Assembly: GCA_007129945.1 (NCBI GenBank)
Contig: SKUN01000020.1
Location: 1 to 46,584, forward strand
Origin: Bacteroidales bacterium
GTDB taxonomy: Bacteria; Bacteroidota; Bacteroidia; Bacteroidales; UBA7960
Reading direction: 5' to 3'
DNA: 46,584 nucleotides
Under the pieces are notes generated by a model. The model was not told the origin of the DNA and did not search any database. It saw nothing but the letters and a program-made list of their open reading frames with translations. Shown here in pieces: positions 3,198 to 35,079 of this stretch (the first letter of the stretch is position 1; every line of letters begins with the position of its first letter). Both the position numbers and the translations under genes were made by a program.

Positions 3198-4970
3198 ATG
3201 AAACAATTCTTCAAATTTATGTTCGCCTCCATGCTGGGGTTCTTTCTGACCTTTGTGATTATCCTGTTTTTAATGATCGGGGTCATTGCTTCCATCGCTA
3301 CTTTCTCTTCCAAAGACGATGCACCGGTTCAGTCCGGATCTGTGCTGAAGCTGACGCTCAGCACTGAATTATCGGACCGGGAAGGCCAAAACCCATTTGA
3401 AGCCTTCGATTTTATGACCATGTCACTCCGAAAATCAATCGGGCTCAACGAACTGCTGAAAAATATTGAGAAAGCCAAAGAAGATGAGAACATTGAGGGT
3501 ATTTTCCTGGACCTGACCGTCGTTCCTTCGGGTTGGAGCAGCATCCTTGAAGTAAGGAATGCCCTGAAAGATTTCCGTGAATCAGGAAAATTCATCATCA
3601 GCTACGGTGAAGCCTATATGCAGTCCGCCTACTACCTTGGTTCGGTCGCAGATGAACTGTACCTCCATCCTGAGGGGGCCATTGACTTCAGGGGCATCAA
3701 TTCAGAGCTTGTATTCCTGAAGAATATGCTCGACAAACTGGGCATTGACCCGCAACTGGTACGGCACGGCGAGTACAAAAGTGCCGGGGAGCCCCTTTTC
3801 CGGGAAGATATGAGCCCGGAGAACAGGGAGCAGATCGAATCCTATGTGGGATCCATCTGGAATAACGTGACCGCAGATATTGCGGAGTCACGTGGCTTTT
3901 CCATCAACCACCTGAATATGGTGGCCGATGGATTACTCACAAGGAATGCCCGGATGGCCATGGAGAACGACATGATCGACGGCATTGCCTACAGGGATGA
4001 AATCCTTGAATTGTTGCGTGAAAAAACGAATCTGGAAGAGGATGAGGATGTGAAATTCGTGTCTCTGGAGCGTTACAGGCGCGCTCCCCTGCCACGGCAT
4101 ATGATCACACCACGCAGCAGGGACCGAATTGCCGTGGTCTATGCCAGCGGAGGGATCATTGACGGCAAGGGCGGAGAAAACAGTATCGGATCCATAGATA
4201 TGTCTGCAGCCATCAGGGAAGCCCGGAAAGACGAATCGGTTAAAGCAATTGTATTCCGCATCAACTCTCCGGGTGGAAGTGCCCTGGCCTCGGATGTCAT
4301 ACTCAGGGAGGTTAAACTGGCCGCACAGGAAAAGCCGGTAATTGCCTCCATGGGCGATGTGGCTGCCTCAGGCGGATACTATATAGCCTGTGCAGCAGAT
4401 GAGATCATCGCCCACCCCAATACCATCACCGGGTCGATCGGGGTTTTCGGTATGATCCCCAATATGCAGGAGTTTTTCAATGAAAAGATCGGCCTCACGT
4501 TTGACAACGTGAAAACCAATGAGTTTGCAGATATGGGTTCCCTCACAAGGCCCATGCGACCCGCTGAAAGGCAAATCATTCAGGAAATGATCGGAGAGGT
4601 GTACGACACTTTCATAGGTCATGTGGCTGAGGGTCGCAACATGCCGGAATCTGTGGTGGATGAACTGGGTCGCGGCCGTGTCTGGAGCGGCGCAGAAGCC
4701 AGGCAGCACGGGCTGATCGACGAATTCGGCGGCTTGCGATTTGCCATCGAAAGGGCTGCCTCAATGGCCGAACTTGAAGACTACCACATTGTGGAATACC
4801 CCAAGCGAAAGGATTTTCTGACCCGGATCATGGAAGATTTCGGCGGGATTGAGGAACGCATTATCCAGCGCAGGTTGGGAGACAACTACCGGTATTACAG
4901 GCAAATCAACGATGCCAGTCAAATGACCGGGATCCTGACCAGGATGCCTTACGACATTTATCTGGACTGA
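3198..4970 (+). CDS. sppA: Signal peptide peptidase SppA, 67K type (protease IV)
   Basis: 590 aa, N-terminal TM segment, RINSPGGSALASD, SMGDVAASGGYYIA, TGSIGV and GRVWSG motifs. Confidence 0.95.
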   Translation: MKQFFKFMFASMLGFFLTFVIILFLMIGVIASIATFSSKDDAPVQSGSVLKLTLSTELSDREGQNPFEAFDFMTMSLRKSIGLNELLKNIEKAKEDENIEGIFLDLTVVPSGWSSILEVRNALKDFRESGKFIISYGEAYMQSAYYLGSVADELYLHPEGAIDFRGINSELVFLKNMLDKLGIDPQLVRHGEYKSAGEPLFREDMSPENREQIESYVGSIWNNVTADIAESRGFSINHLNMVADGLLTRNARMAMENDMIDGIAYRDEILELLREKTNLEEDEDVKFVSLERYRRAPLPRHMITPRSRDRIAVVYASGGIIDGKGGENSIGSIDMSAAIREARKDESVKAIVFRINSPGGSALASDVILREVKLAAQEKPVIASMGDVAASGGYYIACAADEIIAHPNTITGSIGVFGMIPNMQEFFNEKIGLTFDNVKTNEFADMGSLTRPMRPAERQIIQEMIGEVYDTFIGHVAEGRNMPESVVDELGRGRVWSGAEARQHGLIDEFGGLRFAIERAASMAELEDYHIVEYPKRKDFLTRIMEDFGGIEERIIQRRLGDNYRYYRQINDASQMTGILTRMPYDIYLD

Positions 4971-9392: not shown

Positions 9393-10568
9393 ATGATCCC
9401 TTTTGAAGAAGCCATGGCCATTACCCTGGAAACACCCATTCGGACAGGCACCGAAAGGGTTGACTTTAATAATGCACTTTACAGGATACTGGCAGAAGAT
9501 ATCCTTTCAGATGTGGACATGCCTCCCTTCCATAAGGCTGCCATGGACGGTTATGCCTGCAGGAAGGCGGACCTGGACAAAGAACTGAAGGTGCTTGAAG
9601 TGCTGGCGGCGGGAGATATCCCCACCGCCTTCGTCGGGCCGGGGCAATGCAGTAAGATCATGACGGGAGCCATGGTGCCCGGGGGGGCCGATACCGTGAT
9701 CATGGTGGAGCACACAGAAGAATGCACCCCCGGACATATCCGTTTCACGGGTGAGAAAACAGCTTCAAATATTGCCCGTAAAGCCGAGGACGTCAGGGCC
9801 GGAGACAGGGTGCTCGACCAGGGAACACTGATCCTTCCCCAGCATACACCCATCCTGGCATCGGTCGGATGCACCAGCCCGCTGGTATCCAAAAAGGTGC
9901 GGGTTGGAATTCTCTCCACCGGCGACGAGCTGGTTGAACCACATATTACGCCCGGCCCCGGAAAAATAAGGAACAGCAATGGGTTCCAGCTCATTGCCCA
10001 GGTAAGGGCAGCACATTGTGAGCCCAATTACCTGGGCATCATACCGGACAATGAAGAAGACACCGATCGTGCCATTGGCAAAGCCCTTGCTGAGAACAAT
10101 GTGGTGATACTCACAGGAGGCGTGTCTGCCGGTGACTTTGATTTTGTCCCGAAGATCATGCGCAAAAACGGGGTAGATATCCGGTTTCAGAAAGTGGCCG
10201 TAAAACCAGGGCGGCCCACCGTGTTTGGAACAACGGAAAACGCAGCGATTTTCGGCCTTCCCGGTAACCCGGTTTCATCCTTTGTGAATTTTGAGGTATT
10301 TGTCAAGCCTTTATTGTTTAAAATGATGGGGCACCAATACCTGCCGCTGGTTCTGAAAATGCCCCTGGACACGCACTACAAGAGAAAGAAAGCCGACAGG
10401 GTGGAATTCATTCCGGCACACATCAGCCAGGAGGGCACAGTGGTGCCGGCGCGTTATCACGGGTCTGCACACATACACGCCATGAGCCTGGCCAACGGGA
10501 TCATGCGCATCCCCAAAGGCACATTTGAACTGAAAAAAGGAGATTATACGGATGTTAGACCAATATAA
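9393..10568 (+). CDS. moeA: Molybdopterin molybdotransferase MoeA
   Basis: PPFHKAAMDGYA, IMTGAMVPGGADTVIMVE, STGDEL, GGVSAGDFD, KPGRP and GLPGNPVS motifs. Start taken at ATG 9393. Confidence 0.95.
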   Translation: MIPFEEAMAITLETPIRTGTERVDFNNALYRILAEDILSDVDMPPFHKAAMDGYACRKADLDKELKVLEVLAAGDIPTAFVGPGQCSKIMTGAMVPGGADTVIMVEHTEECTPGHIRFTGEKTASNIARKAEDVRAGDRVLDQGTLILPQHTPILASVGCTSPLVSKKVRVGILSTGDELVEPHITPGPGKIRNSNGFQLIAQVRAAHCEPNYLGIIPDNEEDTDRAIGKALAENNVVILTGGVSAGDFDFVPKIMRKNGVDIRFQKVAVKPGRPTVFGTTENAAIFGLPGNPVSSFVNFEVFVKPLLFKMMGHQYLPLVLKMPLDTHYKRKKADRVEFIPAHISQEGTVVPARYHGSAHIHAMSLANGIMRIPKGTFELKKGDYTDVRPI

Positions 10569-31164: not shown

Positions 31165-32817
31165 ATGAATAATGCACAATTCTATTACACCCGGCCAAAC
31201 AATGAACCAATTTATGAATACAGACCCGACACACCCGAGCGCAATGCCCTTGAGGCAGAACTGCAGCGACAAAGTGAACTGGAGCTGGAAATTCCGCTGA
31301 TCATTGGCGGCAAAGAGGTCCGCACCGGAGATACAGGCAAGGTGGTAATGCCACACAACCACCAGCACGTACTCGCCACCTATCACAAGGCTGGCAAAAA
31401 AGAAGTCAAAATGGCCATTGATGCGGCCCTGAAGGCCCACCGCGAATGGGCCGAGATGTCGTGGGTGGATCGGACGTCCATTGCCCTGAAAGTGGCTGGC
31501 CTGATCGCGGAAAAATACCGTGCCCTGATGAATGCATCCACCATGCTGGGGCAAGGAAAAAATGCCTATCAGTCGGAAATTGAGGCCGTTTGTGAAACCG
31601 TTGATTTCCTTCGTTTCAATGCGCATTATGTATCCGAAATTTATGACGATCAGCCTCATTCAGAGATTGGCAACCTTAACCGCATCGAATATCGGCCCCT
31701 TGAGGGTTTCGTGTTCGCCGTGACACCATTCAATTTCACCGCCATTGCATCCAACCTGGCCATGGCACCCGCCATCCTGGGGAATACAGTGGTCTGGAAG
31801 CCGGCCACAACCGCCCTGTTGTCCAATTATTACCTGATGCAGATTTACAGGGAAGCAGGAATGCCTGACGGGGTGATCAATTTTATACCCGGGAAAGGCA
31901 GTACGGTCGGAGACGTCGCCCTGAACGATGAGAACCTCGGCGGACTGCACTTTACCGGCTCTGAGCCCACCTTCAACCACTTGTGGAAAACCGTTGGTGA
32001 CAATATTGACAAGTACAAAACCTATCCCAGGGTGGTGGGAGAAACCGGAGGCAAGGACTTCCTGGTGATGCACAACTCCGCAGACCTGGACGAGGTGGCC
32101 ACGGCACTGGTTCGCGGTGCATTCGAATACCAGGGGCAGAAATGCTCGGCCGCTTCCAGGGCTTATATCCCGGCCTCCAAATGGCCGGACCTTGAGAAAA
32201 AGCTCAAGAACAATATCGCCATGATCAAAAAGGGAGATGTGCGCAATTTCTGCAATTTCGTCAATGCCGTGATCGACGAAAAGGCTTATGACAAGATCAT
32301 GGGCTATATCCAAAAAGCAAAGGACTCCCCGGAGGCGGAAATTATTGCCGGAGGCAACGGGGATAAATCGAAGGGATACTTCATTGATCCTACAATAGTC
32401 CTTACTTCCGACCCGCATTTTACCACCATGGAGGAAGAGATATTCGGCCCTGTACTGACTATATACATCTATGAAGACGAGGATTACGAAAAGACCCTGC
32501 ACCTTTGCGACGAAACATCGCCTTACGGGCTGACCGGGGCCATTTTCTCCAAAGACCGGACGGCCTTTGTCCGGGCCTGCCGCATCCTGAGATATGCCGC
32601 GGGTAACTTATACTATAATGACAAGCCGACCGGTTCCGTTGTGGGTCAGCAGCCATTCGGCGGGGCAAGGCGGTCAGGCACAAACGACAAAGCTGGAAGT
32701 TACATGAATCTGCTGCGCTGGATCAACCCGCGCTCAATCAAGGAAACATTCAATCCGCCAACCGACTTCAGGTATCCTTTCATGCATGAAGAACCGTGCT
32801 ACAGGGAAGAGGATTAA
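31165..32817 (+). CDS. pruA: L-glutamate gamma-semialdehyde (P5C) dehydrogenase
   Basis: RPLEGFVFAVTPFNFT, GETGGKDF, AFEYQGQKCSA, EEIFGPV and QQPFGGAR motifs. Start taken at ATG 31165; -7 box TATATTTG at 31115-31122. Confidence 0.93.
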   Translation: MNNAQFYYTRPNNEPIYEYRPDTPERNALEAELQRQSELELEIPLIIGGKEVRTGDTGKVVMPHNHQHVLATYHKAGKKEVKMAIDAALKAHREWAEMSWVDRTSIALKVAGLIAEKYRALMNASTMLGQGKNAYQSEIEAVCETVDFLRFNAHYVSEIYDDQPHSEIGNLNRIEYRPLEGFVFAVTPFNFTAIASNLAMAPAILGNTVVWKPATTALLSNYYLMQIYREAGMPDGVINFIPGKGSTVGDVALNDENLGGLHFTGSEPTFNHLWKTVGDNIDKYKTYPRVVGETGGKDFLVMHNSADLDEVATALVRGAFEYQGQKCSAASRAYIPASKWPDLEKKLKNNIAMIKKGDVRNFCNFVNAVIDEKAYDKIMGYIQKAKDSPEAEIIAGGNGDKSKGYFIDPTIVLTSDPHFTTMEEEIFGPVLTIYIYEDEDYEKTLHLCDETSPYGLTGAIFSKDRTAFVRACRILRYAAGNLYYNDKPTGSVVGQQPFGGARRSGTNDKAGSYMNLLRWINPRSIKETFNPPTDFRYPFMHEEPCYREED

Positions 32818-33845
32818 TGGATACGCAGTTCCCCCCGCAAGGGTTTTTGCAAATATTCCCTTAGACGATCAGAGGTATATCCGTTGCCAAGCAAATACAT
32901 CAGCTTGGTAACGGCAGCCTCGGTGGTCATGTCGTATCCGCTGACAACGCCGATATTAACCAGCCATGCACTGGTCTCATACTTCCCCTGATCCACTGAT
33001 CCTCCGCGGCACTGGCTTATGTTGCATACCAACAACCCCCGTGCAATGGCATTTTTCAGTTCTTCCCTGAACCAGTCGAGATGAGGCGCGTTCCCTGCCC
33101 CATAAGTTTCCATCACTACGGCTTTCAACCCGTCGATCGACAAGATCGCAGACACCACTGAACGACTGATTCCGGGAAACAGCTTCAGTACGGCAATGTT
33201 GTTGTCAAGCTGGGTATACACCCGGAGCTTATCACCTGAGGCTTGCCCGATGGCAACTTCATTGTATTTGATGTGCACACCGGCACGAGCCAGAACCGGA
33301 TAATTCACCGATAAAAAGGCTTCAAAGTGCTCCGCATTGTGTTTGTGGGTGCGGTTCCCACGATACAGCTGAGATTCGAAGAAAATACAGACCTCCGGCA
33401 CCACGGCTCTTCCCCCCTTTTTTGCTGCTGCAATCTCCAGGGCGGTGATAAAGTTCTCTTTCCCGTCAGTACGGATCATTCCGATGGGGAGCTGAGACCC
33501 GGTGAACACCACAGGTTTTGACAGGTTCTCCAGCATAAAACTCAGGGCAGAAGCCGAATAAGACATGGTATCTGATCCGTGTAATACCACAAAGCCGTCA
33601 TATGCATCATAATGGGCTTCGATCATCCTGGCAAGCCGGATCCAGATCGACGGTTCCATGTTCGAAGAGTCGATTACAGGGTCAAACGAAATACTGTCAA
33701 TCTGATAATTGAACCGTTTGATCTCCGGGATCTGATCGGTCAGATGCTCAAAATCAAATGGATTCAGGACGCCGGTGACAGGATCTTCCACCATACCAAT
33801 GGTGCCGCCTGTGTAAATGACAAGTATGCGAGGTTTTGGATTCAT
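32814..33845 (-). CDS. ansA: L-asparaginase type I
   Basis: IYTGGTIGM, DSSNM, HGSDTMSY, TGSQLP and DMTTEAAVTKL motifs. Confidence 0.93.
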   Translation of the reverse strand: MNPKPRILVIYTGGTIGMVEDPVTGVLNPFDFEHLTDQIPEIKRFNYQIDSISFDPVIDSSNMEPSIWIRLARMIEAHYDAYDGFVVLHGSDTMSYSASALSFMLENLSKPVVFTGSQLPIGMIRTDGKENFITALEIAAAKKGGRAVVPEVCIFFESQLYRGNRTHKHNAEHFEAFLSVNYPVLARAGVHIKYNEVAIGQASGDKLRVYTQLDNNIAVLKLFPGISRSVVSAILSIDGLKAVVMETYGAGNAPHLDWFREELKNAIARGLLVCNISQCRGGSVDQGKYETSAWLVNIGVVSGYDMTTEAAVTKLMYLLGNGYTSDRLREYLQKPLRGELRIH

Positions 33846-33856
33846 TTGGTCAATTG

Positions 33857-34070
33857 GTTAGTCGGAGGCTTCGCCTCCTCCAGTTAGTCGGGGCTATCGC
33901 CCCTCCAGTTAGTCGGCGCTGCGCGCCTCCAGTTGTTAGTTTGTCGAGGGCTGCCGCCCTCTCCAGTTGTTGGTTCCGGCGCTTCGCGCCTGTTAGTTGT
34001 TAGTTTGTCGAGGGCTGCCGCCCTCTCCAGTTGTTAGTTCCGGCGCTTCGCGCCTGTTAGTTGTTAGTTT
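33857..34070. repeat. Array of 7 GC-rich mini-hairpins in GTTAGTT-type linkers, including a 64-bp tandem duplication
   Basis: Hairpins at 33864-33878, 33890-33903, 33915-33927, 33946-33961, 33978-33990, 34010-34025 and 34042-34054. Linker TCCAGTTAGTC at 33879-33889 and 33904-33914. 33931-33994 equals 33995-34058 with 1 mismatch. Confidence 0.9.
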
Positions 34071-34075
34071 CCATG

Positions 34076-34318
34076 GCCCGTACAACCAACAACCAACTAA
34101 CAACCACCTGAGCCGTTTACCAGTCTATTGGCAGCTTCCCCTTCACTTCGCCCATGAGAACCAACAACCAACAACCTGACAGCTTCGTCCAGTGTTTTTG
34201 GGCAACCCCTACCGTTCCCAGCCCATGAGAACCAACAACCAACTAACAACCACCTGAGCCGTTTACCAGTCTATTGGCAGCTTCCCCTCAACTCCGCCCA
34301 TGAGAACCAACAACCAAC
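34076..34318. repeat. ~71-75-bp-period repeat module (GCCCATGAGAACCAACAACCAAC) overlapping the tatD 3' end
   Basis: Exact 23-mer at 34150-34172, 34221-34243 and 34296-34318, degenerate copy at 34076-34097. 34084-34172 equals 34230-34318 with 3 mismatches. Confidence 0.9.
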
Positions 34319-35079
34319 CCAAACATCCTCCGTGCATTGGCAGTGGTCACCTCAGCCACTTCCTCCACATCAACTCCTTTAATCTCTGCGATCCGCTCTG
34401 CGATATAGGACAGGTAGGCACTCTCATTTCTTTTTCCCCGGTAAGGAACGGGTGAAAGGAAGGGGGCATCCGTTTCCAGAATAAGATGCTTTAAATCCAC
34501 CGCTTCAACCACCTCTGCCATCAGGCTGTTCTTATAAGTGACCACACCACCGATCCCCAGCATGAACCCCATGTCTGTCACTTTCCCGGCCTGTGCTGCA
34601 TTTCCGGGAAAACAATGAAACACACCCGTCAGTGCAGGATCCTGCCTCGGAATGAGCACATCAAACAATTCATCCAGGGAGTTACGTGAATGCAGGATAA
34701 GGGGCAACGAATACTTTTTGGCCCAGTGAATATGGTGTTCCAGTGATTCCTTCTGCTCGGCGGCATAGGTTTTGTCCCAATACAGGTCAATGCCGGTTTC
34801 ACCGACGGCAACAAATTCTCCTTTTTCCAGCCACTTTTCGATATTGGCCAGTTCAGTTTTATAGGTGGTCTTCACGGAGGTTGGATGAAGCCCCATCATG
34901 GGCAGGCATTTCCCCGGGAACTGCCGGGCGGCGGCCATCATCGACACCACCGTGTGGCTGTCAATATTGGGCATGAGCAGGTGGCTGACCTGCGCCTTTT
35001 CCGCACGGTCAACCACCTCTGCCCTGTCATGATCAAACTGTTCCAGGTAAATATGCGTATGGGTGTCGATCAGTTCCAA
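34288..35079 (-). CDS. tatD: TatD family DNase/hydrolase
   Basis: IDTHTH, GLHP, AVGETGID, LHSR, GVFHCF and LETDAPFL motifs. TTG start. Confidence 0.92.
   Translation of the reverse strand: MELIDTHTHIYLEQFDHDRAEVVDRAEKAQVSHLLMPNIDSHTVVSMMAAARQFPGKCLPMMGLHPTSVKTTYKTELANIEKWLEKGEFVAVGETGIDLYWDKTYAAEQKESLEHHIHWAKKYSLPLILHSRNSLDELFDVLIPRQDPALTGVFHCFPGNAAQAGKVTDMGFMLGIGGVVTYKNSLMAEVVEAVDLKHLILETDAPFLSPVPYRGKRNESAYLSYIAERIAEIKGVDVEEVAEVTTANARRMFGLVVGSHGRS

Follow-up and report, generated by a model that had tools for sequence, protein, structure and literature searches.

An uncultured soda-lake Bacteroidales bacterium carries an array of seven short GC-rich hairpins in the spacer between a tatD-family gene and ansA, the gene for asparaginase. 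The window analyzed here is the whole contig on which this array lies, 46,584 nucleotides in length (C181 of the source assembly, hereafter G000; 2.41 Mb, 209 contigs, 92% complete), and the nearest named relatives of the source genome are uncultured Bacteroidales metagenome-assembled genomes (MAGs). On the evidence set out below, we lean toward the view that the seven hairpins belong to a non-coding repeat of modular build, interspersed in the genome, restricted to one lineage and subject to turnover at the DNA level, that they make up the 3' arm of a single copy, and that the form under constraint is single-stranded DNA. In kind, the repeat can be likened to REP/BIME, BOX or NIME elements. 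A genome-wide search for similar units found about 200 of them in about 90 intergenic regions, so the array is no isolated curiosity.

The array is not a product of chance either, because the density of such hairpins in the genome is low and the folding of the minus strand exceeds that of every shuffled sequence. Perfect GC-rich hairpins (stem of at least 5, loop of 3-5) number 1949 in 2.41 Mb, family copies included, and about 0.15 would be expected per 190 nt against the seven in the window. A 235-nt stretch of the minus strand folds with z-scores of -5.1 as DNA and -6.5 as RNA, and none of 200 shuffles was as good. Since units 4-5 and 6-7 are copies produced by a 64-nt duplication, the window contributes five independent units rather than seven.

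Structural rule of the hairpin units

The original prediction had described seven perfect hairpins with GC-rich stems of 5-6 bp, set between conserved linkers. Reading the sequence and scanning it for hairpins recovered exactly these stems and loops on the minus strand, and the plus-strand linkers are conserved as described. The linkers are A/C-rich on one strand (hereafter the A/C strand), and to avoid circularity the units for structural counts were picked by linker context alone: 162 matches were obtained, of which 3 chance matches with AT-rich inserts were dropped, leaving 159. Perfect palindromes accounted for 146 of these 159 units. When the 3' arms were shuffled among units of equal stem length (1000 shuffles), the mean was 57 perfect units and the maximum 75, which bears out the proposal that different stem sequences all pair. 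There are at least 8 stem types (GGCGC, GGGGC, GAGGGC, GGGGGC, GGGTGC, GTGGC, GGAGGC, GGGCC and rarer ones), all beginning with G, and they are combined with at least 13 loop types of 3-4 nt. The 13 imperfect family units mostly have a single mispair or combine arms from two different stem types.

Loop composition follows an equally strict rule. Every perfect unit has a closing C-G pair and an A as last loop base (146/146 each), and 133 of the 146 begin the loop with G. The loops include every one of the four GNA triloops and seven kinds of GNNA tetraloop, and no unit has the T..C form of the loop on the A/C strand. The strand bias of the loops that had been suggested from the window thus holds across the family and is tied strictly to the A/C linker strand. 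The remark that the loops fall outside the RNA GNRA rule also stands: among 66 tetraloops of the G..A type, 63 have C or T at position 3 and only 3 (GCAA) a purine. Mispairs are rare (21 in 841 stem pairs) and include 4 G.T and 4 A.C, with no sign of a tolerance of wobble on either strand. At loci sampled in other genomes that carry the family, perfect units numbered 24/25 in G019, 19/20 in G021, 5/6 in L001 and 4/6 in G003. Some GGCGC/GCA hairpins of G003 (L121, G003:C82, first 200 bases) stand in a linker of the ..GGTTGAC.. type, where the core is kept and the linker family has changed.

On the A/C strand the core of the units reads GC-GNA-GC or GC-GNNA-GC, with stems that end in GC and rarely in CC. 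This core is the experimentally defined DNA mini-hairpin consensus GCGNAGC / GCGNNAGC in the retrieved part of PMC13037366, as the original prediction had proposed. According to that part of the source, GNA loops alone formed the mini-hairpin among all 64 GCNNNGC fragments, and the closing stem must be GC/GC or CC/GG. It gives a melting temperature of 76.5 C for the DNA mini-hairpin against 39 C for r(GCGAAAGC), about 70-72 C for GNNA variants including GATA, GACA, GCAA and GTTA, and 33 C for GCTTTTGC; SSB is described as a poor binder of such hairpins. The units share with the d(GCGNAGC) / d(GCGNNAGC) motif a GC (or CC) closing stem, a G and an A at the loop ends and free middle bases. In the retrieved text of PMC13037366 the motif is known from single sites, namely the single-strand origins of phages and plasmids and the promoter of a phage, and here it is the basis of a chromosomal repeat family.

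Judged by sequence, the invariant positions of the units fit the requirements of the mini-hairpin one for one, and the complementary strand is without them. Two more observations lean, indirectly, toward a constraint at the DNA level: 63 of the 66 tetraloops are not GNRA, and the mispairs within stems give no sign of a tolerance of wobble. Work on the mini-hairpin motif spans forty years and has dealt mostly with oligonucleotides and a few phage origins. With about 200 natural units that keep the experimentally essential positions and vary the rest, a role in vivo becomes testable. In the literature retrieved, with subscription journals and supplements outside the search, there were no tandem arrays and no chromosomal repeat family built on the mini-hairpin consensus.

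A modular repeat family in a small clade

Having defined the hairpin (H) units, we took a census of the source genome. G000 contains 198 H units in 78 arrays of 1 to 12 units. The H units are accompanied by a second kind of module, termed L, of 64-80 nt and of two sequence types, each ending in an 18-nt head, CCCATGAGAACCAACAAC, of which 172 copies were counted (up to 3 mismatches). Regions with H or L modules number 90 and total 15.2 kb. No array out of 78 lies inside a confidently called gene body, and the family is therefore extragenic with more than 100 copies per genome. Of the 418 contig ends, 36 lie within 300 nt of a family region. As many arrays sit at contig ends, the true number of units is higher than counted, and the family accounts for part of the fragmentation of these soda-lake MAGs.

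The anatomy of a unit is uniform. On the A/C strand, a linker ending in ..C(C/T)GGA precedes stem, loop and stem, which are followed by GAC(T/A/C)AAC and by zero to two further heptamers of the AACCAAC, AACTAAC or AACAAC kind. About 100 units have GACT after the stem, 13 have GACA and 9 have GACC (AGTC, TGTC and GGTC on the opposite strand), and on the opposite strand the stem is followed by a tail of TCCA or TCCG. A second linker type, with ..ATCA before and GGAAC after, surrounds some GGCGC units. Spacing within arrays is regular at 24-34 nt. A composite may open at its 5' end with an S hairpin, whose 6-bp stem ends in CC; between one and six L modules and then head-to-tail H units follow toward the 3' end, and A/C-rich heptamer linkers of the AACCAAC type join all the parts.

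Orientation obeys a simple rule as well. Within one array all units point the same way, and in 19 of 19 regions with two orientations the arms meet 5'-to-5' at a near-palindromic junction, with no convergent or mixed case; in such divergent composites both outer ends bear hairpin units, inverted relative to each other. Examples are the window itself (33864-34314), C187 13404-13723 and C79 8163-8576. A search for a core gene in the stretches that separate divergent arms turned up one ordinary gene of 136 aa and otherwise only additional short modules. One of these modules, ..CATTCGTACCTCTGGCT.., recurs between divergent L arms (C133 ~700-740, C195 ~4700-4720), and the family accordingly has module types beyond S, L and H. 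A pyrimidine-rich repeat of CTTCTACCTTC-like words borders some composites (C53 ~10030-10090, C171 ~3850-3900, C173 ~67800-67880). The S hairpins are a second hairpin family with a conserved tag before the stem and form tandem arrays of their own, one of them with a 70-nt period; sites in G000 are C139 ~3240-3430, C173 57868-58270, C189 9424-9470 and C87 10659-10730. For the L modules, no consensus RNA structure was found on either strand. A coding function of these modules was rejected by inspection: the heads hold ATGA, an overlapping start and stop, but periods of 64, 70, 71, 75, 78 and 82 nt break the frame.

Of 61 genomes searched, the same four (G000, G003, G019 and G021) contained the hairpin-linker pattern and also the L head. 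Carriers represent 4 of 25 species genomes of one genus, and none of 36 genomes from other genera is among them. Matches to the hairpin-linker pattern and to the L head numbered, respectively, 32 and 99 in G000, 31 and 51 in G019, 22 and 60 in G021, and 10 and 29 in G003; reversed-pattern controls gave 0-1 matches. In viral contigs of IMG/VR, the L head matched at 5 loci and the hairpin-linker pattern at 6, as single matches with at most one linker word and no arrays, and their membership in the family was rejected in favor of chance or terminator matches. In three of these contigs (L135-L137) a hairpin of the form GGGGC / GAAA or GCAA / GCCCC comes after a stop codon, and behind it stands a T-run in two of them and a C/T-rich stretch in the other; such sites resemble ordinary terminators and matched the pattern by chance. 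The commonest unit core, the 13-nt GGCGCG(A/C)AGCGCC, occurs 52 times in the source genome. In a sample of 400 other Bacteroidota genomes it reached 22, 15 and 12 copies in G455, G368 and G261 and at most 9 elsewhere; the copies in these three genomes could be terminators or belong to another hairpin family.

Empty and filled sites could be compared in close relatives. Following the suggestion that the tatD-ansA spacer be compared in related genomes, we found a plain spacer of about 55 nt without the repeat in L003 (79% AnsA identity) and arrays in L002 (93%) and L001 (97%), where the kinds and numbers of units differ from those in the window. At two more sites (C79 and C95), the non-carrier G002 has about 22 nt between co-directional genes and G000 a repeat of 440-560 nt. 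The C79 site is filled in all three other carriers, which differ in the units they have there. At C95, G003 has the repeat, the G021 contig breaks inside the array and only one flank was matched in G019. Between filled and empty sites at C79 and C95 there is no clear target-site duplication of the kind that marks a MITE, the old spacer being too diverged to tell. Runs of identical units and repeated multi-unit blocks occur within arrays. Taken together, these observations indicate a single origin of the family in an ancestor shared by a small clade, and further that its sites have been inherited and that whole units turn over much faster than the flanking genes diverge.

A proposed constraint on single-stranded DNA and alternative explanations

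How could such a family be maintained and spread? We propose that the A/C strand, whenever it is transiently single-stranded DNA, would fold into a row of highly stable mini-hairpins with unpairable linkers between them, and we infer that single-stranded DNA is the constrained form. Folding would promote slippage and template switching between linkers, which would account for tandem duplications, growth and shrinkage of arrays, shuffling of units and units with hybrid arms. Perfect palindromy may owe its persistence to selection for folding, to correction by template switching within a strand, or to the two together; the correction of quasi-palindromes is a known template-switch process. For dispersal to about 90 sites, the candidates are ectopic recombination and a trans-acting enzyme that was not found here or has been lost. 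A bolder version of this proposal, which we hold only tentatively, is that the mini-hairpin is itself the propagating unit: arrays would fold despite SSB and would multiply, shuffle and correct themselves through template switching at the replication fork or through a kind of enzyme with no link to repeats so far, without an HUH transposase. If true, this would be the first natural genome-wide selection of the motif and a new route for the growth of intergenic DNA. 

Several observations weigh against this explanation. Thirteen perfect units have a loop that does not start with G (TTTA in 11, ACA in 1 and ATCA in 1), and the loops of S hairpins on the A/C-linker strand are mostly TTC, a polarity opposite to that of H units. 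Nearest-neighbor DNA folding gives the G..A strand only a modest edge (-45.3 against -41.4 kcal/mol for the other strand). Perfect stems could simply reflect young copies of a few masters. No bias with respect to replication strand was seen by way of contig GC skew, the G..A strand being G-rich in 18 arrays and C-rich in 28; this skew is a weak proxy, in accord with gene strand on 47 contigs and at odds with it on 31. The lack of a dispersal agent among the enzyme families searched in the carriers (see below) counts weakly in the same direction. Finally, the longer arrays show an orientation toward genes and a probably transcribed context, described next, that fit an RNA role too.

Positions relative to genes were counted with a crude longest-open-reading-frame (ORF) caller. 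The 3' end of the hairpin arm lies almost always at a coding boundary, either shortly before a same-strand start or a few nucleotides past the stop of an opposite-strand gene, and composites fill intergenic spacers up to the adjoining start or stop codons. Among arrays of at least three units, 16 are sense and either lie 8-49 nt before a start codon or overlap the crudely called ORF, 6 adjoin a stop codon, 4 are at contig ends and 3 are more than 120 nt away; the excess of 16 over 6 has a binomial p of 0.05. All five arrays of at least seven units are sense before a start. At least three operon-like spacers, the tatD-ansA spacer and the two sites above, are short in non-carriers, and the arrays inserted there are very likely transcribed. 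These features would be expected if the arrays act as RNA, with hairpins that protect or process the mRNA, A/C linkers that form a ribosome loading region and a loop rule dictated by RNA structure or an RNA-binding protein. In line with this, the minus strand folds as separate RNA hairpins (z of -6.5 against -2.3 for the plus strand), and contigs of the RNA run cover ansA and the end of tatD, a type of data that cannot show transcript ends.

We nevertheless regard an RNA role as the basis of the family as possible but doubtful. The family is missing from 21 of 25 congeners, where the corresponding sites hold plain short spacers, and unit content shifts between genomes whose AnsA is 97% identical. 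Arrays of one or two units have no orientation preference (13 sense before a start and 15 after a stop, with 16 more than 120 nt away and 5 at contig ends), and of the whole unidirectional composites that lie between co-directional genes, 14 are sense and 9 antisense. The GNRA rule is broken by nearly all G..A tetraloops, mispairs compatible with G.U pairing are not in excess (4 vs 4), and positions 33000-35000 of the window gave no match to the covariance models of Rfam 15 at E up to 1. We read the placement before start codons as tolerance rather than design. The longest arrays would lie sense before start codons because their A/C-rich, G-poor 3' linker is probably a harmless or even useful unstructured leader; beside a start codon, an array in the opposite orientation would do harm. 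Unstructured A-rich leaders are said to be preferred in Bacteroidota.

The other proposal made from the window was that of a REP-like element recognized by an HUH/RAYT-type nuclease. Its first half holds in a broad sense and its second half finds no support in the carriers. The Pfam family Y1_Tnp (RAYT and IS200/IS605 TnpA) is found in none of the four carriers and in 9 of 21 non-carrier congeners, with control positives in 6 of 14 genomes. As the carriers are MAGs of 92, 95, 77 and 82% completeness, and such assemblies often lose insertion sequences, this absence is suggestive only. RVT_1 was present in one carrier and five non-carriers, without a link to carriage, the TnpB zinc ribbon in one non-carrier and no carrier, and IS110 in no carrier. 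Y2_Tnp was likewise absent from the four carriers, in a search that was uninformative since its control matched nowhere. Among the ORFs of G000, no protein family exceeded two members.

That these are classical REPs moved by a RAYT or an IS200/IS605-type Y1 HUH transposase reading hairpins on single-stranded DNA is thus improbable in our view. The short GC-rich extragenic palindromes, their high copy number and their occurrence between genes and inside operons are shared with REP/BIME sequences and RAYTs of E. coli and Pseudomonas, as are mosaics with other short motifs and subfamilies that differ by compensatory stem changes (retrieved parts of PMC2817692 and PMC3333891). In the same descriptions, REPs within BIMEs alternate, whereas units here are 13-16 nt long and follow one another head-to-tail, as many as 12 to an array; pairing is confined to whole composites and is 5'-to-5' in every case. 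The units have no GTAG tag. CGTC-tagged REPs come closer: as described in the text of PMC3733652, they have no dedicated transposase, include Bacteroidetes among their phyla, form large clusters in some genera, carry ..GTC before the stem and a short C-rich tail with CCA, and pair predominantly head-to-head. Here, too, GTC stands directly before the stem on the T..C strand, a TCC tail follows and composites pair head-to-head. That text gives stems of 8-9 bp that begin with A/T pairs and loops of 4-5 nt for these REPs (published stems span 6-13 bp), against 5-6 bp of G/C and 3-4 nt in our units, where the tag is mostly AGTC with only GTC in common and the units form tandem arrays with heptamer linkers. 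This comparison rests on the text of PMC3733652, and its per-species family tables could hold a closer relative. By tag, stem length and composition, orientation and RAYT presence, the family is set apart from REP/BIME and is REP-like only broadly.

Other known repeats are more distant. The ends of IS200/IS605 elements and their miniature derivatives likewise depend on small hairpins folded on single-stranded DNA; unlike the family described here, they need the Y1 enzyme TnpA and are bounded single elements, not tandem arrays. Pneumococcal BOX and Neisseria NIME/dRS3, of which the family is reminiscent in architecture, are modular intergenic repeats with variable internal tandem modules, without a known transposase, that affect adjoining genes. 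They are unrelated in sequence and host, and their modules are longer and have no 7-8 nt mini-hairpin at the core. In the retrieved text of PMC3733652, dRS3 is equated with CGTC-1. It is a long-standing question by what means REP-like repeats that lack a dedicated transposase spread and remain palindromes, and this family is well suited to it: it is young (4/25 congeners), still turning over, RAYT-free in the assemblies searched and has empty sites in close relatives.

Perfect dyad symmetry, the regular spacing and the location beside gene starts are also features of double-stranded binding sites, and the arrays might serve a nucleoid or regulatory protein, hairpin potential being a by-product of the dyad. 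We consider this very improbable. With at least 8 stem sequences, the protein would have to be blind to the sequence of the dyad, and the conserved positions are the asymmetric loop G and A. Moreover, the strand asymmetry of the linkers would be useless in a duplex, and the arrays are absent from non-carrier congeners.

The composite between tatD and ansA

The original prediction placed the element at 33857-34070. The hairpins lie there, yet they form only one arm of a composite of about 470 nt (33846-34318), which consists of three plus-strand L modules (34098-34318), the junction and the seven minus-strand hairpin units (Table 1). Linkers of the hairpin arm extend from the junction to 18 nt short of the ansA start codon, which agrees with the distance first given for the nearest hairpin.

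Table 1. Features of the composite element and the adjoining genes in the window
Feature	Coordinates	Strand	Description
ansA (asparaginase)	32814..33845	-	Pfam Asparaginase domains; directly downstream of hairpin arm, same strand
Entire hairpin arm	33846..34059	-	A/C-rich linkers of GACTAAC, AACTAAC and AACAAC words
Hairpin unit nearest ansA	33864..33878	-	stem GGAGGC, loop GAA
Hairpin unit	33890..33903	-	stem GGGGC, loop GATA
Hairpin unit	33915..33927	-	stem GGCGC, loop GCA
Hairpin unit	33946..33961	-	stem GAGGGC, loop GGCA
Hairpin unit	33978..33990	-	stem GGCGC, loop GAA; second linker type (..ACA before, GGAAC after)
Hairpin unit	34010..34025	-	stem GAGGGC, loop GGCA; product of 64-nt duplication
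Hairpin unit	34042..34054	-	stem GGCGC, loop GAA; product of 64-nt duplication
Tandem pair of 64-nt two-unit blocks	33931..34058		33931-33994 and 33995-34058, 98% identical
Near-palindromic 5'-to-5' junction	34056..34097		leftward hairpin arm against rightward L-module arm; minus-strand head 34060-34077
L module, type X	34098..34168	+	ends in 18-nt head CCCATGAGAACCAACAAC at 34151-34168
L module, type Y	34169..34239	+	head 34222-34239
L module, type X	34240..34318	+	head 34297-34314; overlaps tatD 3' end
tatD-family gene	34288..35079	-	upstream of hairpin arm, same strand

Could the array be an artefact in the assembly of a metagenome bin? No contig in four runs spans the entire repeat, so that the copy number of the 64-nt block rests on this assembly, and contig ends often adjoin family regions, as noted above. 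Contigs of three DNA runs, from 2012 and 2019, reproduce both edges of the array exactly (32900-33886 and 34259-35000), and several inner pieces recur in them without differences. Related arrays are present at the same site in two other MAGs, and the family occurs in three further species genomes. Misassembly, which the original prediction had named as a possible undoing, is thus hardly credible.

The same prediction had stated that no enzyme gene is adjacent, which does not hold, as tatD belongs to a nuclease family and adjoins the array. With the family present at about 90 loci, this adjacency is most likely a coincidence. The family adds several hundred bases to operon spacers and rewrites the 3' end of at least one gene. 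That gene is tatD, which at 34288-34318 runs into the outermost L module, so that its last ~10 codons and TGA stop are supplied by the module. In L002, by comparison, tatD has its own, earlier stop.

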